Shown here: in pieces, positions 5,683 to 53,660 of the stretch
Numbering within the stretch: the stretch's first letter is position 1
Layout: the number at the start of each line of letters is the position of its first letter
DNA from: Armatimonadota bacterium
Lineage (GTDB): Bacteria > Bacteroidota > Ignavibacteria > OLB7
NCBI GenBank assembly: GCA_020850315.1
Contig: JADZEY010000089.1
Span: 1,022 to 65,021 of the forward strand
DNA: 64,000 nt
Direction of reading: 5' to 3'
Notes under the pieces: model-generated
Told to the model about the DNA's origin: nothing
Seen by the model: only the letters and a program-made list of their open reading frames with translations
Databases searched by the model: none
Made by a program: the position numbers and the translations under genes

Positions 5683-8241
5683 CTATCGCTCACTTGTTCC
5701 CTCATCTTCGCCCTTGTGGCCCGCTGCGGTGGGGGGCTTGGGCGTTGCTGCTTTCCGTGTGGCTGTGCGCTTTGGCTGTGCTGGCGCGCTGCTTTGTGCG
5801 CTCTCCTCCACCTGTGGCTTGCTTGCTTTGGATGCCGTAGCTGCGGCCTTTTTTGCGGGGCGTTTGGCTGCTGGCTTGGGTTGTGCTTGTTCGGCCACTT
5901 CTGCTTTTACTGTTGGTGCCGCCGATTTTTTTGCCGCAGCTTTTTTAGCTGCTGCGGTTGTGGCTGGCAGCACAACGGCTGGTGTGCCCACGGTAGCCGC
6001 AGCCGCCGGAGGTGGGGAAGCGGGTGAGATAGATGGAGTTTTCATTGCTGGCCGATTTGCTGCCCCGACAGGCTCCGTTGGCGTTGGCTGTGCTATCGGG
6101 TTAGCTGGTCGCTGCTCTGCTGCTGCTGGCCGTTGTTGGCCGGGTTGCTCAGTTGGCCGTGGGTGCTGTTGTGCAGGTTGCTGCCGCTGATTCCCTTGCG
6201 GCTTGGCTTGCGCTGATCCAGATTGCTGGGTTGGCCGCTGTTGCTGCTGGCTACCCTGCTGTGGCCGCTGCTGTTGCTGTGCGGGTTGCTGGCGTTGCGG
6301 CTGATTTCCTTGTGGCTGCTTGGCTTGGGTTGATCCAGATTGCTGAGTTGGCCGCTGTTGCTGCGGCTGGCTACCCTGCGGTTGCTGTGGCCGCTGCTGC
6401 TGCTGTGCGGGTTGCTGGCGTTGCGGCTGATTTCCTTGCGGCTTGGCTTGGGTTGATCCAGATTGCTGAGTTGGCCGCTGTTGCTGCGGCTGGCTACCCT
6501 GTGGTTGCTGGGAGCGTGGCTGCTGCTGCTGGCTTCCTTGTGGGGTGGTCTGGGCAGTTCCGGCTGGCTGCTGTGGTCGCTGCTGGTTTCCCTGCTGTGG
6601 CTTCGGCTGTTGTTGTTGGGGTTGATTCCCTTGCGGCTTGGCTTGGGCTGTTCCTGTTGGTTGTTGCTGTTTTTGTCCCCCCTGCTGGCCGCGTTGTTGG
6701 GGTTGGTTTGCGGGCTTTGGTTGCTGTTGGGGCTTCTGCCCGTTGGTGGATTGCTGCCCGTTTGCTTGTTGCTGTGCGTTGGCTGGTTTTGCTTGCTCGG
6801 GCTGGCGGCGTAGCTGGATGAACTCAATCCGCAGCACATTTTTGGTCTCGGGGGTGATGCGATAGCGTTCGTCAAGCCTCATGCCGCATACCCAGATGAT
6901 GGTTTGGTCATCGGCCAGCACCAGCACGTCGCGCTTGGCATCCAACGCTATTTTTTCGTCAATCAGGAAATCGCTGATCTTTTTCTCACCATTCATCCCC
7001 AACGGCTGGAAGCGATCACCTTCGCGCCAGGAGCGCAAGGTTAATTTTTTCGGCAGACGGTCGGCATCAATAAACTCTATCGAGCGGTTGTTATTGAATT
7101 GGATATTGTTGTTTTTCATCCGTCGGGTTACCAGCCGCGCTTTCCCTGTCTCGGTGGTTGTTCCGGTGTCGAAACTCCGCTCGAACGGAATAAACGGCGG
7201 TGGATCGCGCCGGATCACCAACGTTTCGCGGTCGCGCAGGGCACTAATTCCATCAACGATTTCTGCTTTGCTTCCGGTTTCTTTCCAAACCAACCCCATT
7301 GTGCGTTCCACAGCCGAGTGTGGGATTGGTGGAAGCTCGAACCGTTGGCACACCACCCGCTGCACCAGCTCCGATTGAATTGCTGGCAGCAGGTGTTTTA
7401 GTTGGTTCAGGTTCAGCTCAACAACATCGTTGCTGCGTGGTTCGTTGTTGCGCGATGCTGTCACCTGCTCGATGGCGGTTCGGACCGAGTGGCCCAGGTG
7501 CTGCTCAACGCCCCGCATGATGTCGGCAGTGGAGTTCAGCGTGCTGACAATGCTTGGGTTGAACTGCTGCAACGCCGGCAGCAGTTCTTGGCGGACGCGA
7601 TTGCGGAGGAACCGTGTGTTCTGGTTGGACTCATCCTCGCGCCATTGAATCCCTGCTTGCTGCACAAATTCCCGAATTTCACTTCTTCCGGCCCAGAGCA
7701 ACGGGCGGGCAAGGATCAGCCCACGCCCCAACGAGCGGACGGGGGGGATTCCGGCAAGCCCGGTAACGCCGCTTCCGCGAAGCAGGTTCATCAACAACGT
7801 CTCGGCGTTGTCGTCGGCGGTGTGGCCTGTTAGTATAATGGAGTATCCGTGGCGGCGGGCAACGCGCTCCAGAAATTGGTATCGGGCTTTGCGTGCGGCA
7901 TCTTCCAGCGAAAGTTTTTGCTCGGTAGCAAGGCGTTGGACTTCGGCCCGTCCGATAAAAATTTTCAATCCCCGCTCGCGTGCTTGCTCGTTGACGAACG
8001 CGGCATCCTTGCGCGATTCCTCGCCGCGCAATTCGTGGTCAAAGTGGGCAATGCCAACCTGAAGTTTCAGCAGGGGAGCAAGCCGCGAGACCATTTCCAG
8101 CAGTGCCATGGAGTCGGCACCGCCGCTAACGGCAATCAGCACCGATTCTTTTCCAAGCAGCATATCGTGCTTGCGAACGTAGGCCCGCATTTTCTGCTGG
8201 CATTTCTCAACAAACGTAGATGTTAGAATCATAAGCCGCAC
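5683..8241 (-). CDS. tilS: tRNA(Ile)-lysidine synthetase TilS fused to a ~390-aa low-complexity C-terminal extension. The extension has Gln/Pro-rich tandem repeats followed by a Lys/Ala-rich basic tail.
   Basis: The N-terminal ~460 aa have the PP-loop SGGADS, the HFDHELRGEES... region and a TilS C-terminal domain ending ...RIEFIQL. The same frame then continues without a stop through ~41-aa repeats (QQRPTQQSGSTQAKPQGNQPQRQQPAQQQQRPQQPQGSQPQ), a short Pro/Ala-rich segment, and an AAKKAAAKKSAAPTVK...KRPAKKAAATASK tail. The start is GTG at 8241 or ATG at 8232. Confidence 0.75.
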   Translation of the reverse strand: MRLMILTSTFVEKCQQKMRAYVRKHDMLLGKESVLIAVSGGADSMALLEMVSRLAPLLKLQVGIAHFDHELRGEESRKDAAFVNEQARERGLKIFIGRAEVQRLATEQKLSLEDAARKARYQFLERVARRHGYSIILTGHTADDNAETLLMNLLRGSGVTGLAGIPPVRSLGRGLILARPLLWAGRSEIREFVQQAGIQWREDESNQNTRFLRNRVRQELLPALQQFNPSIVSTLNSTADIMRGVEQHLGHSVRTAIEQVTASRNNEPRSNDVVELNLNQLKHLLPAIQSELVQRVVCQRFELPPIPHSAVERTMGLVWKETGSKAEIVDGISALRDRETLVIRRDPPPFIPFERSFDTGTTTETGKARLVTRRMKNNNIQFNNNRSIEFIDADRLPKKLTLRSWREGDRFQPLGMNGEKKISDFLIDEKIALDAKRDVLVLADDQTIIWVCGMRLDERYRITPETKNVLRIEFIQLRRQPEQAKPANAQQQANGQQSTNGQKPQQQPKPANQPQQRGQQGGQKQQQPTGTAQAKPQGNQPQQQQPKPQQGNQQRPQQPAGTAQTTPQGSQQQQPRSQQPQGSQPQQQRPTQQSGSTQAKPQGNQPQRQQPAQQQQRPQQPQGSQPQQQRPTQQSGSTQAKQPQGNQPQRQQPAQQQQRPQQGSQQQQRPTQQSGSAQAKPQGNQRQQPAQQHPRPTEQPGQQRPAAAEQRPANPIAQPTPTEPVGAANRPAMKTPSISPASPPPAAAATVGTPAVVLPATTAAAKKAAAKKSAAPTVKAEVAEQAQPKPAAKRPAKKAAATASKASKPQVEESAQSSAPAQPKRTATRKAATPKPPTAAGHKGEDEGTSER
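6150..6570. repeat. Tandem direct repeat of about 3.3 near-identical copies, period 117-123 bp, inside the tilS 3' extension
   Basis: Repeat units begin at about 6202, 6319 and 6442 with CTTGGCTTGGGTTGATCCAGATTGCTGAGTTGGCCGCTGTTGCTGCGGCTGGCTACCCTG.... The first copy has a 6-bp deletion. The repeats are in frame, so the protein repeats are 39-41 aa long. Confidence 0.85.
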
Positions 8242-8521
8242 AATTTAGCCATAGCGTACCGAAGAGCGGCACAGAGAATTGGTGAAGGGAAATATCAACG
8301 CTTCGGGTAGCAAGCGCAGTGGGGGCAAACAGGCCATACAGTATCGGGACAAATTGGGGGAGGGGGAGCGGACATATGATCTTGTAAAAAAAATTGTTAG
8401 CGCGTTGCTTCGGTTGTGAGAACGGTGTGTTACGCCCTATCTTTGCCGTCCTTATTACAACGTTGGAACCAATCATACTGCCTTTTGGCAGGGAGAATCA
8501 GCAGTGTTACAGCCGGAAAAA

Positions 8522-8956
8522 ATGACAGTCTCGGCCCGTGAGGCCGATGTCGAGAAACAGTGGTGGGTGGTGGATGCCGAGGGGCAGACCCTGGGTCGCC
8601 TTGCTTCGCAGATTGCCCACATCCTTCGCGGCAAGCATAAGCCGCTTTTTACGCCGCACGTTGATTGTGGTGACTTCGTCATCGTGGTCAATGCCGATAA
8701 GGTGCAGATTGCACAACGCCGTGCCGAGCAGAAAGTGTACATCCACCACACCGGGTTTCCGGGTGGGCAACGCATCCGCCCGTACAAGCAGATGTTGCAG
8801 AACAATCCGGAGGAGATCATCGAGATCGCCGTCCGCCGGATGATTCCCCGCAACCGGCTTGGAAAGCGGATTATGACCAAGCTGCGCGTTTATACCGGTG
8901 GCGACCACCCACACTCCGCACAGAAGCCAGAAGCACTAGAACTGAAATACAAGTAA
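8522..8956 (+). CDS. rplM: 50S ribosomal protein L13
   Basis: MTVSAREADVEKQWWVVDAEGQTLGRLASQIAHILRGKHK aligns with the E. coli L13 N-terminus. The ORF begins with GTG at 8504, but the ATG at 8522 matches the canonical start. Confidence 0.9.
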   Translation: MTVSAREADVEKQWWVVDAEGQTLGRLASQIAHILRGKHKPLFTPHVDCGDFVIVVNADKVQIAQRRAEQKVYIHHTGFPGGQRIRPYKQMLQNNPEEIIEIAVRRMIPRNRLGKRIMTKLRVYTGGDHPHSAQKPEALELKYK

Positions 8957-8973
8957 TCCCAGCATAGCTACCA

Positions 8974-9360
8974 ATGCCGAATTCAATCAACGTCGGACGG
9001 CGCAAAAATGCTGTTGCACGGGTGTACCTTACCCCGGGCAACGGCAACGTCACCGTGAACAACCGCGAGCTTATCAACTACTTCTCCGATCCTTTCGACC
9101 GCCAAACCATCATGTCACCATTGGTGGCTGTGGAGATGGTTGATCGTTTCGATGTCCATGCCAACGTCAACGGCGGCGGGCGCGCCGGCCAAGCGGGTGC
9201 TATTCGTTTGGGCATTGCCCGCGCCCTTGTGGAGATTGACGAAACGCTGAAATCCCCGCTTCGCAAAGGGGGCCACATGACCCGCGACCCACGCATGGTG
9301 GAGCGGAAGAAGTACGGCCAGAAGAAGGCCCGCAAACGCTTCCAGTTCAGCAAGCGTTAA
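8974..9360 (+). CDS. rpsI: 30S ribosomal protein S9
   Basis: It has the S9 signature ...GGGRAGQAGAIRLGIARAL... and the C-terminal KKYGQKKARKRFQFSKR. It lies immediately downstream of rplM. Confidence 0.92.
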   Translation: MPNSINVGRRKNAVARVYLTPGNGNVTVNNRELINYFSDPFDRQTIMSPLVAVEMVDRFDVHANVNGGGRAGQAGAIRLGIARALVEIDETLKSPLRKGGHMTRDPRMVERKKYGQKKARKRFQFSKR

Positions 9361-45680: not shown

Positions 45681-47675
45681 ATGACCAAAGCCCTACGCTA
45701 TTACCTTGCCGCAGCCTTGCTTGTTGCTGCTGGCGTGTTGGTGGCAATCAACACAAAATCTTCGCCGAAACCGGCGGCGCGCACCTACACTGGTGTGCAA
45801 TCTTGCCTAACCGCCAACTGCCATGCCGGACAGTATGGCAACGGAGAAAGCTACAAAGGTGCCGCAGCGTTTATGGAAACGATGCACACCAAAATCCACC
45901 AGCGACCAAACCCACAGACCGTAATCATTGACCGCTGGTTCCGCGAAAAACGTGTGTTGAAAATCCACGACCAGGGAATCCCAACGCCTGGGCAGGATAC
46001 GCTGCTGATTGAGCTAAGCAAAGGGGAGCGTGAGGATGAATACTACATCCAGCTCCGCTTCTCGGGTGGGGGCGATTCCTTGCCAAAAATGAAGGTGGGC
46101 TACACCTACGGCGGCAACGGATGGCTGCAACGGTTTTTGGTGGAGATCAACGGAGCCTACTATGTTCCCCCGTTCCAGTATGTGCTTCCTGAATACCGTA
46201 ACCAGTCCGATACCGGTTATTGGGTTGGATTGGATATGCAAAAATGGTACGTGGCAAACGATCCAAATACTGGCAGCGCACGATTCCTCCGCTGGGAAAA
46301 GAATGAGTTCCTGAAACTCTCGTGGGATCACGAGTGTGCTGCCTGCCACGTAAACGGTTTTGGCTTGGTTGTGGATCCCAAACCAGGAACAACCGACACC
46401 GCAAATTATGCAACATGGGTTGGCGTTGCCGAAGGCGACTCCGCTCTGGCCGACCAGAACATTATGATCGGTTGCGAAAGCTGCCACGGCCCCGGCTCGG
46501 AACACGTTGCAAGCCCACGGAAGGATAACATCTTTGCCTTCTCGGTACTCCCCAAAACAAAGGAGGCAACCGACCGCAAATTGGATCTTTGCAACTACTG
46601 CCACACCCGTGGCCCCAGCAAGCCAGGCCGCGTCCATCGCTATCCGTTTGATGAAACCAACAATGAGCCGTTCATCCCAGGTGGCGAACGTCCGCTCAGC
46701 GATTTCTTTTTCGCACGCCCAACGGTCTGGGACGACGGAAAAACTTCCTACGCCCACCACCAGCATGGCGATGATTATGCGCGCTCAACGCAGTATAAAA
46801 GTCACCTGTTCATTGACGGCTGCTCCGATTGCCACTTGTCCCACTACAACAAGCCAGGGCTACCGTTCCAGTTGAAAGATGATTACTACTCATTGGAAGA
46901 TGGCGTTGGCTGCATGAGCTGCCACGGTATTCCAAAGGCGCAGGGAGGAAAGAGTGAGTTCCCAGCCGATAATTTGGGACGTGATACAGTGTTGGAAGGG
47001 AAGACCCTGAACGCACATACGTTCCACTCGCAAGGGGTAAGCCAGTGTGTGAACTGCCACTTCACGGCAACGGCAACCATCTCCTTCGACGGCAAGTTCA
47101 ACTTCACCGATCACAGCTTTAAAGTGGTCTCGCCAGAGGAGACTATTTGGTACTACCGCCGCGGAGCAACCATCGGGGTGATTAACTCCTGCGCTGCGGG
47201 CTGCCACCGCAACGGGCGCGGCGAACGGAACCGCAAGCCAGGCGACCCGCTGGCCCCAGACTTTGGAATCGTAGATCTGAACCCAGTCTTCTATAAGGAG
47301 AAAACGGATAGCCTGTTGGCTGATACGCTGTTCAAGCGTTGGAAGCAGTGGGGATGGTCAACACGGCATAATCAAACTGGAGTTGAGACATCCAACATCG
47401 CCGTCACCGGCATGGCACCAAACCCAATGGTATCCGGCAACACGCTGAACATCCAGTACAATGTGAAGTCCCGCTCGAACGTACGGGTGCAGATTGTGGA
47501 TATGCTTGGCAGGAACATCCGGTACGTTGCCAACGGCATGACCGAGCCAGGGAATCACTCAGTAGTGTGGGATGCCAACGATAACTTTGGCAAGCGGGTG
47601 GCAAGCGGAGCCTACATGGTTCGCATCACAACACCGGCTGGGACCACCAGCGAAAAAGTGATTGTGCTGCCGTAG
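45681..47675 (+). CDS. Secreted multihaem c-type cytochrome with a C-terminal Por/T9SS sorting domain
   Basis: It has a signal peptide and six canonical CXXCH motifs (CAACH, CESCH, CNYCH, CSDCH, CMSCH, CVNCH). There are also variant CX3CH (CAAGCH) and CX4CH (CLTANCH) motifs. The last ~85 aa (MAPNPMVSGNTLNIQYNVKSRSNVRVQIVDMLGRNI...SGAYMVRITTPAGTTSEKVIVLP) match the T9SS C-terminal-domain consensus. Confidence 0.75.
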   Translation: MTKALRYYLAAALLVAAGVLVAINTKSSPKPAARTYTGVQSCLTANCHAGQYGNGESYKGAAAFMETMHTKIHQRPNPQTVIIDRWFREKRVLKIHDQGIPTPGQDTLLIELSKGEREDEYYIQLRFSGGGDSLPKMKVGYTYGGNGWLQRFLVEINGAYYVPPFQYVLPEYRNQSDTGYWVGLDMQKWYVANDPNTGSARFLRWEKNEFLKLSWDHECAACHVNGFGLVVDPKPGTTDTANYATWVGVAEGDSALADQNIMIGCESCHGPGSEHVASPRKDNIFAFSVLPKTKEATDRKLDLCNYCHTRGPSKPGRVHRYPFDETNNEPFIPGGERPLSDFFFARPTVWDDGKTSYAHHQHGDDYARSTQYKSHLFIDGCSDCHLSHYNKPGLPFQLKDDYYSLEDGVGCMSCHGIPKAQGGKSEFPADNLGRDTVLEGKTLNAHTFHSQGVSQCVNCHFTATATISFDGKFNFTDHSFKVVSPEETIWYYRRGATIGVINSCAAGCHRNGRGERNRKPGDPLAPDFGIVDLNPVFYKEKTDSLLADTLFKRWKQWGWSTRHNQTGVETSNIAVTGMAPNPMVSGNTLNIQYNVKSRSNVRVQIVDMLGRNIRYVANGMTEPGNHSVVWDANDNFGKRVASGAYMVRITTPAGTTSEKVIVLP

Positions 47676-47713
47676 CCAGCGGCAACGCCAACCGAACAAC
47701 ATATGGTAGTTGT

Positions 47714-47763
47714 GGAGGCACGGATTCTCTGGGGGAGCAATCTCCCCGCGACTTCGTGCCTCC
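47714..47763 (+). terminator. Compound stem-loop 3' of the cytochrome gene
   Basis: The outer arms GGAGGCACG...CGTGCCTCC enclose an inner GGGGGAG/CTCCCCG hairpin. A GGGGGTTTTCCC tract lies 20 nt downstream. There is no clean U-tract. Confidence 0.35.
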
Positions 47764-47902
47764 CGTGTATCGGGGCTGCTCTTGGAGGGGGTTTTCCCAC
47801 AGTTTGAAAAACGCTGCGACAGCAATCCCTACCTTGAATTCCGTAGCTTGCTTCGGTAGAGCATCAATCTGGGGCTAACCATAATTCTGCGGAATCAACG
47901 CT

Positions 47903-48592
47903 GTGTCTTCCACGCTTGCCAAAGCATTCCAACAAATGGCTGCTGTTGCGGCAAAGGATATCCGAAGCGAGCTTCGTACACGATTCGCGCTGAACTCCCT
48001 TGCAATGGTTGCTGTGGTAACGGTGGTGGTGTTGGTGTATGCCGCCCGCGAGGAGGTGAAGGTCCCCGTGGGGATTGCTTCCGGGATGCTGTGGGTGAGT
48101 ATGTTTTTTACCGCTGTGACTGGGCTTGGCCGCACGTTTGTTAGCGAGGAAGAGCGTGGCACGGTGCTGCTGCTGCGGCTAACAACCTCGGCAATCCCTG
48201 TGTACTTCGGCAAGCTGCTGGTGAATATGCTGTTTGCTGTTGGGGTGAATGCCGTGGTGGGGGTGCTGTACTTGTTCTTCTCCACCAACGTGCAGTTGGG
48301 TTCGCCGTTCGCGCTGCTGGTGGTGCTGCTTCTGTGCAGCTTCGGGTTTGCCGCATCGCTCACAATCGCTTCGGCCATTATCGCCCGCTCCTCCTCCAAA
48401 AGTGCTCTGTTCCCGGTGCTCTGTTTCCCAATTCTGCTGCCGCTGATGGTGCTGGGGATTGACCTTCTTGGCCGTTCGTTTGCTGGCGCAGCGTTGGGCG
48501 TGATGCTTGAACCATTGCTGCTGCTGCTGCTGTACTCAGTGCTGGTGATCGTCGTCAGCTACATCTTGTTCGACTTCCTCTGGAAAGAATAA
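47903..48592 (+). CDS. ccmB: Haem exporter protein B (System I cytochrome c maturation)
   Basis: It has six predicted TM helices and the CcmB-family motif FVSEEERGTVLLLRL. It begins with GTG at 47903; an alternative ATG lies at 47936. No ccmA ATPase gene is adjacent. Confidence 0.72.
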   Translation: MSSTLAKAFQQMAAVAAKDIRSELRTRFALNSLAMVAVVTVVVLVYAAREEVKVPVGIASGMLWVSMFFTAVTGLGRTFVSEEERGTVLLLRLTTSAIPVYFGKLLVNMLFAVGVNAVVGVLYLFFSTNVQLGSPFALLVVLLLCSFGFAASLTIASAIIARSSSKSALFPVLCFPILLPLMVLGIDLLGRSFAGAALGVMLEPLLLLLLYSVLVIVVSYILFDFLWKE

Positions 48593-48595
48593 TCC

Positions 48596-49696
48596 ATGAA
48601 AGCACTTCTCATTTTCGGCGGGTTTGCCTTGGGGATGTTCCTCGGCTTCTATCCCGGCGGCGTTACCAAGCCGCGCCCCGTGTGGTGGCGCACCGTTGCA
48701 ATGGTTGCCCTTGTGGTGTTGGTTTTTGTTGGGTTCGGCGTGCCAACGGGGGGAACCTTCGGCTCGGCAAAAATGATCACCATGACCAAGGACACGCCGC
48801 CACTGCTTCCGGTGATGGGGAAGGTGGTGCAGGCGCCAACCAACGGCTTGGCCGTGCTCCAAGATTCCGATGGTGATTTAGATACGTTCCGGTTGGCCGG
48901 CACGGGAATGAACCCCTCTGACATCCAGCGTGGCGACCAAGTGATCCTTGATGCCCGCTTCATTCGCGCCGAAAAACTGTTCGAAGCCGAGCGGGTTGCT
49001 TCGGTGAACCCCATCGTCACCGCGCCGCTGATCCCCGGGCTTGAGGAACGCGCCCGCAACCTCTATTTCCATGTCCCCTCGGCTTGGGTGGCGCAAATTG
49101 CGTGGTTTGTGGCGTTCGGTTTTGCGATAGCCTACCTGCGCAAACGAAAAATTGAGCATGACATCATTGCAAGCTCAGCTGCCGCGTTGGGGGGGATTTT
49201 TTGCCTGTTAGCAACCATCACCGGATCGGTGTGGGCGCGTTTTAACTGGGGGACATTTTGGACGTGGGACGATCCCCGGCTTATCTCCATCACGATTGTC
49301 CTGATTGTTTTTGGGGCCTACTTTGCGCTCCGTTCTGCAATCGAGAACCAAGACCAGCGGGCAAGGATTTCCGCAGTCTATATGATTATCCTGGTGCTTC
49401 CGGTGACGTTCTTCATGTTCGTCTATCCCCGGATTGCTGGCGGATTGCACCCCGGTTCAAAAGGGGATGTGAACTCCGGACCGGTGCTGTCGGGCCAAGC
49501 CGATTCAATGAACATTGTGATGCAGGTCATCTACGGCTTAGCAATCTTTGCGTTTATTACTCTCTACTTCTGGATGCTGAACGTTGCTGCCCGAACACGG
49601 CTGTTGGGGATGCGCCGGGAACGCCGCGCCGCCGAAATGGATAACCGAGAGAAACAACCAACATCGGCAATGGGGCCGACGGTGGTTCGTCTGTGA
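48596..49696 (+). CDS. ccmC: Haem exporter protein C with a ~125-aa N-terminal extension or insertion
   Basis: The WWD tryptophan-rich motif (NWGTFWTWDDPRL) and the LYFHVPSAW block align with CcmC. The protein is 366 aa against ~245 aa for canonical CcmC. The extra region has two TM segments and a ~70-aa soluble segment. Confidence 0.78.
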   Translation: MKALLIFGGFALGMFLGFYPGGVTKPRPVWWRTVAMVALVVLVFVGFGVPTGGTFGSAKMITMTKDTPPLLPVMGKVVQAPTNGLAVLQDSDGDLDTFRLAGTGMNPSDIQRGDQVILDARFIRAEKLFEAERVASVNPIVTAPLIPGLEERARNLYFHVPSAWVAQIAWFVAFGFAIAYLRKRKIEHDIIASSAAALGGIFCLLATITGSVWARFNWGTFWTWDDPRLISITIVLIVFGAYFALRSAIENQDQRARISAVYMIILVLPVTFFMFVYPRIAGGLHPGSKGDVNSGPVLSGQADSMNIVMQVIYGLAIFAFITLYFWMLNVAARTRLLGMRRERRAAEMDNREKQPTSAMGPTVVRL

Positions 49697-49746
49697 GCCA
49701 CGGCTTGCTGAAGCGATCAACTTCATACACTGGCCAACCAAGAACC

Positions 49747-49881
49747 ATGCAATTCCTATCCGAACACTCTATCTACGTTGTTCTTATCATCGCGCTATTG
49801 ATCCTGAGCGGGTTGCTGATCTACCTAAACCGGATTGATGCTCGGCTGCGAAAACTTGAACAAGAGGAACCACAACCATGA
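49747..49881 (+). CDS. CcmD-like small single-TM protein
   Basis: It is 44 aa (MQFLSEHSIYVVLIIALLILSGLLIYLNRIDARLRKLEQEEPQP). Its size and position between ccmC and ccmE are typical of CcmD. Its stop overlaps the ccmE start. Confidence 0.45.
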   Translation: MQFLSEHSIYVVLIIALLILSGLLIYLNRIDARLRKLEQEEPQP

Positions 49882-50261
49882 AACCAAAGTATATCATCGG
49901 GGCCGTTATCGCCCTTGCGGTGCTGGTCACAGCGTTTATCGTTGTTGAAAGCCGTGGCGTGGAGTACATGAACTTCCCACGCGCCGCCGAATCAGGAAGC
50001 AAAGTGCAGGTGGCCGGCGTTTGGGTGAAAGAGAAAGGACAGGAGTACAACGCCACCAACAACCTGTTCACGTTCACCATGCAGGATCGCGACGGCAACA
50101 CCATGCCAGTAAAGTTTGAAGGTGCCAAGCCAAATAACTTCGAAATTGCCACCGAAGTGGTCTGCACCGGAAGGGTGGAGAATGGAGAGTTTGTGGCAAC
50201 GAACATCCTAACAAAATGCCCCAGCAAGTACGAAGCAACCTCAAAAGACTTGCAGCTGTAG
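49878..50261 (+). CDS. ccmE: Cytochrome c maturation haem chaperone CcmE, Cys variant (CXXXY instead of HXXXY)
   Basis: It has a TM anchor and an OB-fold that aligns with E. coli CcmE. VQVAGVWV corresponds to VRLGGMVM, and VKFEGAKPNNF to VSYEGILPDLF. The haem-binding position reads ILTKCPSKYE where the canonical sequence is LAKHDENY. Confidence 0.68.
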   Translation: MKPKYIIGAVIALAVLVTAFIVVESRGVEYMNFPRAAESGSKVQVAGVWVKEKGQEYNATNNLFTFTMQDRDGNTMPVKFEGAKPNNFEIATEVVCTGRVENGEFVATNILTKCPSKYEATSKDLQL

Positions 50262-50316
50262 CCACGCATCAGCCACGCTGCACTCTCCCGCTTTCCCAGA
50301 ACTAACCCTTTCCTCA

Positions 50317-50673
50317 ATGCAACGCAGAATCCTTTTCATCTCCTTCTTTCTGTTGCTCGCAGCCGGCGTTGTGATCTACGGAGTGATGAACGTTGATGTG
50401 CCGCAAATGACCTTTGCCGAAGCGGTGAAGGTCAACGATGAATCCAAAAAAGTGATTCTGGTGGGGAAAGGAATCAACCGCCCCGCCACCGAGGATGGCG
50501 CAGTGGTCTTTTACGTGACCGATATGGACGGCACCGAAGTGAAAGTGAGCTACGATGGCGAAGCCTTCGACCACGAACGGCTGAACCACGCCTTGCAAAA
50601 GGGAGAGGTGGTGCACGTTGCCGGCCACGCCCACTCGGATCATTTCCACGGCAAAGAACTCTTCTTTAAGTGA
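50317..50673 (+). CDS. Second CcmE-like OB-fold protein with a His-rich C-terminus
   Basis: It has a TM anchor. VKVSYDGEAFDHERL...KGEVVHVAGHAHSDHFHGKELFFK aligns with the CcmE core (VDVSYEGILPDLF...GQGVVVQGEL). The C-terminus is His-rich and lacks the conserved Tyr. Confidence 0.5.
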   Translation: MQRRILFISFFLLLAAGVVIYGVMNVDVPQMTFAEAVKVNDESKKVILVGKGINRPATEDGAVVFYVTDMDGTEVKVSYDGEAFDHERLNHALQKGEVVHVAGHAHSDHFHGKELFFK

Positions 50674-50697
50674 CCCCCCACACAGCAGCTTACACCA

Positions 50698-53121
50698 ATG
50701 AATGATACAGCAGTTTTTAACGGAACACTTGGCACGATTGCCATCTGCTTTGCGCTTGCCACCGCCGCAATCGCAATGGTTGCCTATGGGCTGATGTGGA
50801 AAAACGGAGAGGAGCGATTTGGGAAGATTGGCCGCGTTGGCTTCCATGCTTCGGTGCTCAGCTTCATGTTCGCATCGGCCACGCTGATGTTCTTGATTTT
50901 CACCCACCAGTTCCAGTACACCTACGTCTGGCAGCATTCCTCCACCTTCCTTTCTCGCCCGTTGCTGATGGCCTCCTTCTATGCCGGGCAGGAGGGGAGC
51001 TTCATGCTCTGGACGTTGCTGACCTGCATCGTTGCAGTGTTTGTGATGGGATATGCCCAGCGGGTGAACTACGAAGCCCCAGTGATGACCATCTACACAC
51101 TGGTGCTGGTCTGTTTGCTGATGATTCTGGTGGTGCAATCTCCCTTCGAGACGCTGCAAGCATCGTTCCCGGGCGAGGTGCCGGCAGGCTACATTCCCCC
51201 CACCGGAAAAGGGATGAACCCGCAGCTGGAAAATCTGTGGATCACCATCCATCCCCCAATTCTTTTCATGGGCTTTGCCGCAATGTCCGTTCCGTTTGTG
51301 TTTGCCATTGCTGGGCTGTTCCGCAAGGATTACCAGCGTTGGATCACCGTCTCGCTCCCCTGGACGCTGTTTGCCTCCATGGTGCTGGGATTCGGAATTA
51401 TGCTTGGCGGTTGGTGGGCCTACGAGACGCTTGGTTGGGGCGGTTTTTGGGCGTGGGACCCGGTGGAAAATTCATCACTGATTCCGTGGCTGGTCTGTGT
51501 GGCACTGGTCCATACCATGCTGGTGCAGAAACGAACCGGAACCATGAACGGCCCTAATGGCAAGCCAATGGCAGGGGGGCTTGTTCGCACCAATTTTGTG
51601 CTGGCAATTTTTGCCTATGCACTTATTCTTTACTCCACGTTCCTTACCCGCTCCGGCGTTCTTGGCGATACCTCAGTCCACAGTTTTGTTGCGCCGGGAA
51701 TGTTCGTGTACGCAGTGCTGTTGGGGATTATTTTTCTATTTCTTGGGATTGGCATTGTTGCCCTCTCAATTCGTTGGCGGCAGCTAACGAACATCGCTGG
51801 CGAGATGAAACTGATGTCGCGCGAGAACGGTTTGGCACTGGGTTCGGCGGTGTTGGTGGGGTGTTCCATCGTTACTTTAATCGGGACAAGTTGGCCCATT
51901 ATTCGCCCCATTTTTGGTTTAGCAAAAAAACCGTTCGAAACCGGCGATTTTAATATGCTGATGCTCCCATTCGGTTTTGTGATTGTGTTCTTGAATGCCT
52001 TAACCATGGGGCTGAAGTGGAAAAACACCTCCAAAGAATCGTTTGTAAAAGCGTTATCATTATCAACAATTATTGCCGCTGTTGGAACGTTCGGGCTGAT
52101 ACTGTTAGGAATCCATGACCCAATCTACATTGCGCTCGGCTTTGGGGCAATGCTGGCATTAACCATCAACATTGAAATGGGGTGGAAAATCCTTCGCGGA
52201 AATAAAAGCTTTGTTGGCGCGTATGTTTCCCATGCTGGCGTTGCGTTGATGATGCTTGGCATTGTCTTCACCGCCCGCTACTCCGTCACCCAGCACGTCC
52301 GTTTGCCGGAAGGGGAGACCAAAGAAGCGTTCGGCTACAAGATGACCTACAAGGGGCAAGAACAGATTGAGTTAGACAAAACCGATCGCGAAAAATACGC
52401 CCATAAAATTGAGATGGTGAAGGATGGAAGCAGCTACGAAGTACAACCAATTATTTTCTGGAGCGATTTTAATAAACGGCAATCTGCATTTCTTGAGCCG
52501 GGGATATTGTACTATCCAACAAAAGACATCTACGTCTCCCCAAAAGCCATTGAAGACGATGGCGGAAATCCAACAATCGCCATGCACAAAGGGGACAAAA
52601 TTCCCCTCCCGTTTGATTCCAGCATCGCCCTCCGTTTTGTGAAATTTGAAATGGCCAACGCAGCCCAAGATGGGAAGCAATCGGCTGTTGTTGAAGTAAC
52701 CACAAAGGATAGCACATTTTCCCTGATCGCTTCACGCGTTTTGGAAGGCGGTCGCTATCTGCCGGTATTGATCCCCTCCACCGACATCTCCATCGGGTTC
52801 GGCGATCTGCGTGCCGATCGGGAAAACTTGGCAAACTCCGAAGCTGTTTTTGTCTTCAGTTCGCCATCGCATCCGCCGCCACCATCCAAGCGGGTGATTA
52901 CGGTTGATGTTTCCGTAAAACCGTTTATTTCGTTCGTTTGGGCGGGAGTGATTATCATGGTGGGGGGATTTTTCTTCTCAATTATCCGCCGCTGGAAAGA
53001 TGTGTTCCGGGGGATAAGCCCTTCAGTGCCTTCACCCCTTCAGCAGCCGCAAACCTTGTTGGCCAGTGGTGAACAATTAAGCAGCGCACGCCCGAAAGAA
53101 ATTAATGTGGGAGAAGTTTAG
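50698..53121 (+). CDS. ccmF: Cytochrome c-type biogenesis protein CcmF (haem lyase subunit)
   Basis: It has the WWD motif (WGGFWAWDPVENSSLIPWL), many TM helices and the conserved CcmF N-terminus (MNDTAVFNGTLG...). The protein is 807 aa. Confidence 0.85.
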   Translation: MNDTAVFNGTLGTIAICFALATAAIAMVAYGLMWKNGEERFGKIGRVGFHASVLSFMFASATLMFLIFTHQFQYTYVWQHSSTFLSRPLLMASFYAGQEGSFMLWTLLTCIVAVFVMGYAQRVNYEAPVMTIYTLVLVCLLMILVVQSPFETLQASFPGEVPAGYIPPTGKGMNPQLENLWITIHPPILFMGFAAMSVPFVFAIAGLFRKDYQRWITVSLPWTLFASMVLGFGIMLGGWWAYETLGWGGFWAWDPVENSSLIPWLVCVALVHTMLVQKRTGTMNGPNGKPMAGGLVRTNFVLAIFAYALILYSTFLTRSGVLGDTSVHSFVAPGMFVYAVLLGIIFLFLGIGIVALSIRWRQLTNIAGEMKLMSRENGLALGSAVLVGCSIVTLIGTSWPIIRPIFGLAKKPFETGDFNMLMLPFGFVIVFLNALTMGLKWKNTSKESFVKALSLSTIIAAVGTFGLILLGIHDPIYIALGFGAMLALTINIEMGWKILRGNKSFVGAYVSHAGVALMMLGIVFTARYSVTQHVRLPEGETKEAFGYKMTYKGQEQIELDKTDREKYAHKIEMVKDGSSYEVQPIIFWSDFNKRQSAFLEPGILYYPTKDIYVSPKAIEDDGGNPTIAMHKGDKIPLPFDSSIALRFVKFEMANAAQDGKQSAVVEVTTKDSTFSLIASRVLEGGRYLPVLIPSTDISIGFGDLRADRENLANSEAVFVFSSPSHPPPPSKRVITVDVSVKPFISFVWAGVIIMVGGFFFSIIRRWKDVFRGISPSVPSPLQQPQTLLASGEQLSSARPKEINVGEV

Positions 53122-53123
53122 AG

Positions 53124-53660
53124 ATGCCGAAAACAAAGCAACCAGCGATTCCTGAAGCTGTGCAATCGAAAGAATTGCACGAAGAGGATCGCATCCTTTC
53201 CAACGAGCAAAAACAGCAGGCGATTGCAACATTCACCAAATTCCTGACCCAGGAACATTACCGCTCAACCGAGGAGCGATTTAAGGTGTTGGAGATGGTG
53301 CTGCACCGCGTTGGGCACGGGCATTTTAATGCCGATGAGTTGTACGCAAATATGGTGATGAGTAAAATTCGCATCAGCCGCGCAACCGTCTATTCAACGC
53401 TGGAGTTGCTGGAAAAAGCTGGGATTATTATCAAGCATAATTTCAGAACTGATAGAAGCTATTATGAGGTCGGATTTGATGAACCACATCACGATCACTT
53501 GATCTGTGTGAAATGCGGGCATATCTCGGAATTTGTGAACCCGCAACTTCTTAGCATTCGCAAGCAAGTTGCCGACATGGCAGGGTTGAAGGTTGTGGAT
53601 CACTCCTTCCAGATATTTGCCGAGTGTCCCGAGCCAGGAAAATGCCCGCATAATCAATAA
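53124..53660 (+). CDS. fur: Fur-family metal or haem-responsive transcriptional regulator
   Basis: It has the Fur winged-helix region (RATVYSTLELLEKAGII), the HHDHLIC metal-site motif and CxxC...C in the C-terminal domain. It starts 2 bp after the ccmF stop. Confidence 0.78.
   Translation: MPKTKQPAIPEAVQSKELHEEDRILSNEQKQQAIATFTKFLTQEHYRSTEERFKVLEMVLHRVGHGHFNADELYANMVMSKIRISRATVYSTLELLEKAGIIIKHNFRTDRSYYEVGFDEPHHDHLICVKCGHISEFVNPQLLSIRKQVADMAGLKVVDHSFQIFAECPEPGKCPHNQ

Follow-up and report, generated by a model that had tools for sequence, protein, structure and literature searches.

A predicted tail-less CcmE paralogue with a conserved histidine triad in a System I* cytochrome c maturation operon

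The window analysed here is a 64,000-nucleotide stretch of contig JADZEY010000089.1, and all positions below refer to it. It carries an operon for cytochrome c maturation (Ccm), in which a small gene, called X in this study, lies between ccmE and ccmF (Table 1). An earlier model-made reading of the letters without database searches (the sequence-only reading) had described X as a His-rich, CcmE-like gene directly downstream of a Cys-type ccmE. Both the position and the His-rich end hold: seven of the 118 residues are His, six of those fall within the last 33, and the C-terminus reads ...VAGHAHSDHFHGKELFFK. The gap between ccmE and X is 55 bp and the gap between X and ccmF is 24 bp, with ccmF in phase with X. 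Neither of these gaps around X contains a plus-strand match to a promoter or terminator, and X is predicted to be co-transcribed with ccmCDE(F). The operon is of the System I* type because its CcmE carries CPSKY; the longer stretch LTKCPSKY is shared without any change by the CcmE of the window and 27 relatives (alignment A4). System I* is a variant Ccm pathway with a Cys-type CcmE, in which the Cys of CPSKY takes the place of the haem-binding His, and it works without CcmH (PMC3601427).

X is a real protein-coding gene under purifying selection. It is no chance open reading frame (ORF), because the ratio of nonsynonymous to synonymous substitutions (dN/dS) is 0.07-0.24 at dS 0.41-1.07 (Nei-Gojobori, relatives of 79-92% identity) and because the protein is conserved down to ~20% identity. 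Relatives at this close range are carried with identical gene order by five further contigs, and in close relatives the gene is intact, not pseudogenised. The neighbouring ccmE gives a dN/dS of 0.03 in the same comparison, and selection on X thus looks looser than on ccmE.

The AlphaFold2 model of X, built from an 18-sequence alignment, has a predicted local distance difference test score (pLDDT) of 91.5. It places helices at residues 2-25, 33-39 and 86-95, and strands at 46-52, 57-59, 62-69, 74-79, 98-105 and 110-117. The predicted topology after the anchor helix is therefore beta1-beta3, an alpha-helix, and beta4-beta5. The residues MQRR precede the helix at 2-25 and are predicted to lie on the cytoplasmic side, and all family members have an equal layout. 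A Foldseek search of the PDB with this model retrieves OB folds. The CcmE structure 1LM0 stands at rank 5 and has the top target-normalised TM-score (0.61, over 101 columns). The model thus agrees with the transmembrane-anchored OB-fold protein that the sequence-only reading had expected.

The kinship with CcmE is visible only by profile-profile comparison. When the X family is aligned at full length with the CcmE of this lineage by hhalign, the probability is 98.9% (E 1.1e-17, 109 columns). With the transmembrane helix cut from both proteins, it is 98.3% (E 1.5e-14, 76 columns). A broader X alignment (A5) without the helix gives 97.5% (E 5.2e-12, 77 columns), and even the most distant X subfamily on its own reaches 93.9% (E 1.6e-7, 72 columns). 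Reversed or column-shuffled X alignments stay at or below 0.6% against CcmE, and as a positive control the CcmE alignment profile matches the solved CcmE structures 2KCT, 1J6Q, 1SR3 and 8CE8_E. The alignment pairs VKVSYDG of X with MPVKFEG of CcmE, and GEVVHVAGHA with TEVVCTGRVE. These lie in the two segments, VKVSYDGEAF...GEVVHVAGHA, in which the sequence-only reading had seen a parallel to CcmE, and that parallel is borne out. Sequence-level methods do not reach this far. BLASTP between X and CcmE is uninformative (E 0.03 over 18 residues), and X profiles searched against PDB sequences do not reach CcmE (E 1.1 with alignment A3, no match with A5). The Pfam model PF03100 has no match on the window X at E up to 1, and the NCBIfam model NF009727 scores 20.7 bits on X, below its cutoff of 126. 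On two relatives, P0149 and P0165, PF03100 scores ~20 bits, below its gathering score of 24.6, and these matches end at profile position 89-90 of 99. Another family, the bacterial OB-fold (BOF) stress proteins YgiW/YdeI/NirD (NF033674), was considered and rejected: weak matches occur in two of 18 members (best E 0.0016) and none in the window X. Because the profile-profile comparison stands with its controls, X is a genuine paralogue of CcmE, a membrane-anchored periplasmic OB-fold protein derived from it.

What X has lost is the part of CcmE that carries haem. X ends seven residues past H111. In the hhalign alignment, ...HFHGKELF of X pairs with ...EFVATNIL of CcmE, and X stops three residues on, at the place where TKCPSKYE follows in CcmE. 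The C/H-xxx-Y haem tail is absent in all 31 X members taken from genomic loci, and the wider X family has only 5-9 residues after the last conserved His. The sequence-only reading had noted that X lacks the conserved Tyr. That is right as far as it goes, since the window protein has no Tyr beyond residue 79, and it understates the loss, since the whole C-terminal haem-binding tail is missing. A second element of the haem site has gone as well. The motif PNNFE (P-[ND]-[NL]-F-[ER]), which lies between beta3 and beta4 and supplies the haem-platform Phe, is invariant or nearly so in the CcmE alignment A4. In the window X the motif is missing; its place is taken by DGEAFDHERLNHALQKG, which the AlphaFold2 model puts in an alpha-helix, and in a distant X subfamily the motif is reduced to a P..PF remnant. 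X is thus very probably a CcmE derivative without the covalent haem-carrying apparatus of tail and PNNFE, and no covalent haem chaperone. It should not be filed or annotated as CcmE, because the curated thresholds, the haem tail and PNNFE all fail. The point has some practical weight for annotation: members that pipelines call 'CcmE' functionally cannot be CcmE.

The family is restricted in its distribution and uniform in its form. A HMMER search with a profile of close relatives against 1.84 billion cluster representatives returns 19 matches. With a broader X alignment, the same kind of search finds at least 118 clusters at 90% identity, all of 107-143 residues. They stem from metagenome-assembled genomes (MAGs) of the Kapabacteria, Ignavibacteria and Chlorobi groups. 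None of the 118 clusters has a precomputed Pfam domain, and the X family has no Pfam model; the clusters are named 'hypothetical protein' save for the automatic 'CcmE' labels of P0149 and P0165. The X alignment holds no conserved stretch of 7-10 residues. Two long matches, P0017 and P0021, were discarded as spurious, being surface proteins with Ig/HYR repeats. P0004 was left out of the alignments. This sequence of 111 residues, from a 604-bp ENA contig, matches X residues 1-74 and then turns into low-complexity AGAKAAGTAGAK..., which has the look of a frameshift or an assembly artefact. In the literature library searched, no paper was found to describe a second, tail-less CcmE-like gene.

For the genomic context, one genome per species was scanned with the CcmE alignment, giving 80 loci, and X was then found by a local search with a hidden Markov model. 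X lies downstream of ccmE in 22 of the 80 species loci, directly in 21 of them and 2 kb away in L060. When all 31 X-containing loci are counted, X is always downstream of ccmE and is directly adjacent to it in 30. This synteny is conserved at 20-30% identity. In most X loci ccmF follows directly, but strict coupling to ccmF had to be rejected: L023, L058 and L060 keep X with ccmC-(D)-E while ccmF is not adjacent. Because ccmF is elsewhere in these three, the invariable neighbour of X is ccmE, not ccmF. In L060, an Ignavibacteriae MAG, three tandem paralogous lipoprotein genes (~185 residues, lipobox ...GC, no Pfam match) occupy 6486-8271 between ccmE and X, and the genes downstream of X itself (8678-9094) are msrB (SelR) and asd, not ccmF. 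Linkage of X to fur, to the multihaem cytochrome gene or to a 213-residue gene is limited to the nearest subfamily (L009, L014, L015, L017) and reflects local synteny. The 58 loci without X mostly have ccmE followed by ccmF within ~100 bp, with three gaps of ~200 bp; in nine of them ccmF was not found in the stretch examined. Because 58 of 80 related species loci do without it, X is an accessory and not a core component.

The most conserved feature of the X family is a triad of potential ligands. Only three of the seven His of X are conserved, H104, H106 (H, C or D in the family) and H111; H86, H91, H100 and H109 are lineage-specific. The family pattern is G-H-x-[H/C/D]-x(3-8)-[F/V]-H-A, on the beta4-beta5 hairpin and away from the CcmE haem position. 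In an alignment of 24 X sequences (17-45% identity), A36, D69, G103 and H104 are invariant, F33, K45, Y79, G81, H111 and A112 are at least 90% conserved, and each of the 24 has H or C at position 106. Over ~131 X sequences, ~121 have HxH..H, eight have HxC..H/K, one has HxD..H and one is degenerate. C106 accompanies H111K in both variants that carry it, and in one of these position 109 has become Cys. In the AlphaFold2 model, H104 and H106 sit on the strand 98-105 (beta4) or at its end, with H111 opposite on the strand 110-117 (beta5). By ordinary hairpin geometry, all three side chains should be exposed to solvent on one and the same face, at the tip of the hairpin. HxH...H sites are found in carbonic anhydrase and cupins, and periplasmic OB-fold metallochaperones exist, such as CusF. 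Interchange of His, Cys and Asp is common at metal-ion sites but atypical for axial ligands of haem.

The position of the triad relative to the membrane can be estimated from a known structure. In the E. coli CcmABCD/E complex, H130 and Y134, the two haem residues at the beginning of the C-terminal tail, are turned towards the membrane (PMC10457321). Were X to take up the same orientation, the triad would lie at the membrane-distal pole, opposite the CcmE haem site.

Among known systems, the closest to X is the Cys-type CcmE of System I* (Desulfovibrio vulgaris, PDB 2KCT; CPSKY, PMC3601427). The two share a single N-terminal anchor, a periplasmic OB barrel, profile homology at 98% and adjacency in the operon, and in addition an Asp after beta2 (D69 in X, D70 in CcmE) and Y/F-x-G after beta3. 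X differs from it in lacking the tail, in having an alpha-helix for PNNFE in the window subfamily, in its own triad, in scoring below the family thresholds, in its restriction to one subclade and in being dispensable. The His-type CcmE of System I (E. coli 1SR3, Shewanella 1LM0/1J6Q, 8CE8 chain E) has the same fold and topology. However, none of the conserved His of X corresponds to H130, X has no equivalent of Y134, and profile-to-sequence searches give no match. CcmH and CcmG of System I, which are anchored in the membrane and act on apocytochrome thiols in the periplasm as partners of CcmF, resemble X in that X is likewise small, anchored and mostly encoded beside ccmF, and here a functional analogy is the most that seems possible. 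CcmH shows no kinship to X in sequence or fold: it folds as a three-helix bundle and carries LRCxxC, whereas X lacks a Cys pair and stays with ccmCDE while ccmF is elsewhere in at least three loci (L023, L058, L060). With the mononuclear His3/His2Cys sites of carbonic anhydrase and cupins, and with CusF, X shares the placing of its ligands on neighbouring antiparallel strands, the exchange of His, Cys and Asp at one ligand position and a small periplasmic barrel, but no homology was detected to these proteins, which act outside cytochrome c maturation.

We propose that X may belong to the Ccm machinery as an accessory, non-covalent subunit, which its CcmE-like anchor would keep beside CcmCDE/CcmF. 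Its triad would bind a metal centre, with a transition-metal ion in a Zn- or Cu-type His3, His2Cys or His2Asp site favoured over haem iron, and X would offer this metal to a partner in the periplasm. A possible role would be to hold or protect thiols, either the CcmE Cys or those of the apocytochrome CXXCH, in a system whose operon has no CcmH/CcmG. Alternatively, the metal site may stabilise a docking surface. Both of these roles for the metal, thiol protection and docking, are speculation. A metal ion is favoured over haem because three ligands on one hairpin face would be unable to sandwich a porphyrin, because the middle ligand exchanges between His, Cys and Asp and one HxC..K member has a compensating Cys, and because the triad is predicted to be away from the membrane-level haem sites of CcmC and CcmF. 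We put the probability that X is a metal-ion accessory subunit of the Ccm machinery at roughly 0.38. Several points weigh against it. One member, P0008, has lost the triad. No CcmF or CcmE residue covaries with the presence of X, and comparison thus gives no hint of a partner. Close relatives manage without X, and therefore any role would be modulatory. The argument from orientation presupposes that X docks as CcmE does in E. coli, and the triad geometry is that expected of a predicted hairpin. Finally, the devotion of the operon to haem and the descent of X from a haem-binding barrel make transient ligation of haem iron a serious alternative.

This alternative would make X a relay or holder that binds haem non-covalently. 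The axial ligand would be a single His of the triad, or a pair of His across a dimer, and haem would be held transiently between Cys-type CcmE and CcmF, or its release from the Cys-haem bond would be helped. The descent of X from a haem chaperone, its constant place beside ccmE and its position directly upstream of ccmF in most loci would fit such a step, and so would the problem it might solve, for the way haem leaves Cys-type CcmE is an open question (PMC3601427). Most X members also keep P-x-x-[PF]-F, which hhalign aligns with the PNNF of CcmE that bears the platform Phe, and His, Cys and the Tyr frequent at position 109 are all possible haem ligands. However, one haem needs at most one of three ligands set on a single hairpin face, and H to D and H to K variants would be odd for axial ligation. 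The predicted site, at the pole opposite the CcmE haem site, would also be away from the WWD sites at the membrane level. In addition, the System I* of Desulfovibrio functions in E. coli without such a protein (PMC3601427), and CcmF keeps its four His ligands whether or not X is present. We therefore regard a haem relay as rather unlikely. The related idea that X replaces a ligand lost from a neighbour finds no footing, because the four canonical CcmF His (185, 272, 328 and 512 in window numbering) are kept with and without X, no CcmF column separates the two groups, and the variable His of the CcmE 'FHAS' segment does not track the presence of X.

A covalent role is far less probable still. 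The sequence-only reading had suggested that tandem genes with different putative haem ligands could mean a division of labour, for example by class of haem motif. In such a model X would be a second covalent chaperone with His for Cys that serves another class of haem motif. X is indeed a CcmE homologue with a His-rich C-terminus in tandem with ccmE, and two automated pipelines label P0149 and P0165 'CcmE'. Nevertheless, no member has the tail with its attachment residue and Tyr ligand, the conserved His of X sit elsewhere than at the homologous site, the His-rich end is no counterpart of H/C-xxx-Y, and the Pfam and NCBIfam thresholds for CcmE are failed. The locus has a single CcmF-type lyase, with no second CcmF/NrfE-type lyase, which argues against a dedicated second chaperone-lyase pair of the Nrf kind. 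We hold this model to be highly improbable. The other role suggested at the outset, haem sensing, also goes unsupported, because a cytoplasmic part of only ~4 residues leaves no signalling output.

It is doubtful that X serves merely as a structural decoy or regulator whose transmembrane helix and barrel take the docking place of CcmE on CcmB/CcmC or CcmF, tuning haem flux or stabilising the complex, with the triad stabilising only the hairpin or an interface. The retention of anchor and barrel with loss of the catalytic tail would suit a decoy, as would the fusion of a tail-less CcmE-like OB domain to CcmC (see below), which suggests reuse of a structural module. X is also dispensable in many relatives and under more relaxed selection than ccmE. 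In contrast, the near-invariant His/Cys triad points to ligand chemistry over packing, and the transmembrane helix of X is unlike that of CcmE in sequence. A further explanation, a decaying ccmE duplicate without function, draws on the look of a truncated paralogue and on the absence of X from most related genomes, but is effectively refuted by selection and conservation: dN/dS stays at 0.07-0.24 at dS up to ~1, at least 118 clusters have a uniform length of 107-143 residues, the family has an invariant motif of its own that CcmE lacks, and synteny is kept at 20-30% identity.

The metal-ion reading has a more specific form, which is improbable as it stands. Here X would be a dedicated and so far unrecognised System I* component, an OB protein tethered to the membrane and loaded with metal in a Zn- or Cu-type His3/His2Cys site, whose open coordination position captures the thiolates or His of CXXCH, or the CcmE Cys, and keeps them reduced and activated for thioether formation, in substitution for the CcmH/CcmG branch; in a variant, X would help to resolve the Cys-haem bond of CcmE.

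System I* is known to mature c-type cytochromes without CcmH/CcmG by way of a Cys-haem CcmE intermediate (PMC3601427). X is a candidate extra component of this pathway, a putative CcmE derivative with a His/Cys triad in place of the haem tail. The clade that carries it, uncultured Kapabacteria and Ignavibacteria-like members of the Bacteroidota/Chlorobi group, contains many organisms that encode large extracellular multihaem cytochromes. The soluble domain of X, at ~90 residues, is small and directly amenable to tests of metal and haem binding.

Table 1. Genes of the ccm operon and features of gene X in the window
Feature	Position	Strand	Basis or remark
Multihaem cytochrome with type IX secretion system (T9SS) sorting tail, 664 residues	45681-47675	+	upstream of ccmB
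ccmB	47903-48592	+	Pfam PF03379, E 9e-11
ccmC with ~150-residue N-terminal extension	48596-49696	+	Pfam/NCBIfam CcmC match, residues ~151-334
ccmD (CcmD_alt), 44 residues from likely ATG 49747	49747-49881	+	Pfam PF20077, E 1.3e-5
Cys-type ccmE, LTKCPSKYE	49878-50261	+	Pfam PF03100, E 9e-17
Gene X, putative tail-less CcmE paralogue, 118 residues	50317-50673	+	ATG start, TGA stop; ORF call
X, predicted N-terminal membrane anchor, residues 2-25	50320-50391	+	AlphaFold2 helix; basic N-terminus kept in family
X, predicted periplasmic OB-fold domain, residues ~30-117	50404-50667	+	AlphaFold2, Foldseek, hhalign
X, signature G103-H104-A-H106-S-D108-H-F110-H111-G112, beta4-beta5 hairpin	50623-50652	+	codons read directly
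X, triad codons	H104 50626-50628; H106 50632-50634; H111 50647-50649	+	read from sequence
ccmF, haem lyase	50698-53121	+	Pfam Cytochrom_C_asm and CcmF_C; NCBIfam CcmF/NrfE
fur-family gene	53124-53660	+	Pfam FUR, E 5e-30

The remainder of the operon shows several features of its own. No ccmA, ccmG, ccmH or ccmI lies within it (45681-53660), and ccmB comes directly after the cytochrome gene, with 47676-47902 between the two, an arrangement that is kept in close relatives including L006. The cytochrome combines MtrC/MtrF-like and c554-like segments with a FlgD-Ig domain and a T9SS C-terminal sorting domain, and is probably secreted or surface-located. The ORF of ccmD, when called mechanically, opens at GTG 49693 and has 62 residues. 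Relatives have 43-44 residues, and the start is probably the ATG at 49747 (MQFLSEH...). The fur-family gene begins 2 bp past the ccmF stop, apparently within the operon; this linkage might couple cytochrome maturation to iron or haem status.

The taxonomic labels around this locus deserve caution. X was deposited as 'hypothetical protein IT211_10425 [Armatimonadetes bacterium]'. The nearest genome locus (L009, with a CcmE 97% identical) is labelled Chlorobiota, all relatives are Kapabacteria- or Ignavibacteria-like, and a protein with a T9SS tail is encoded at the locus. Mis-binning or mis-classification probably accounts for the Armatimonadetes label, and the labels 'Hyphomicrobiales', 'Chromatiales' and 'Chloroflexota' of several related MAG loci look equally wrong.

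The N-terminal extension of CcmC (48596-49045) contains two predicted transmembrane helices and a beta-rich periplasmic domain of ~90 residues. By hhalign it matches CcmE with 90% probability (E 1.5e-6) and the X family with 64%. It is present in 18 of the 22 X-containing loci and in 15 of the 58 X-lacking ones. Judged by this profile similarity, the extension carries a fused, tail-less OB domain of the CcmE type. It thus seems that these Ccm systems put CcmE-type barrels to repeated use as modules, as a free copy and as a fusion to CcmC.

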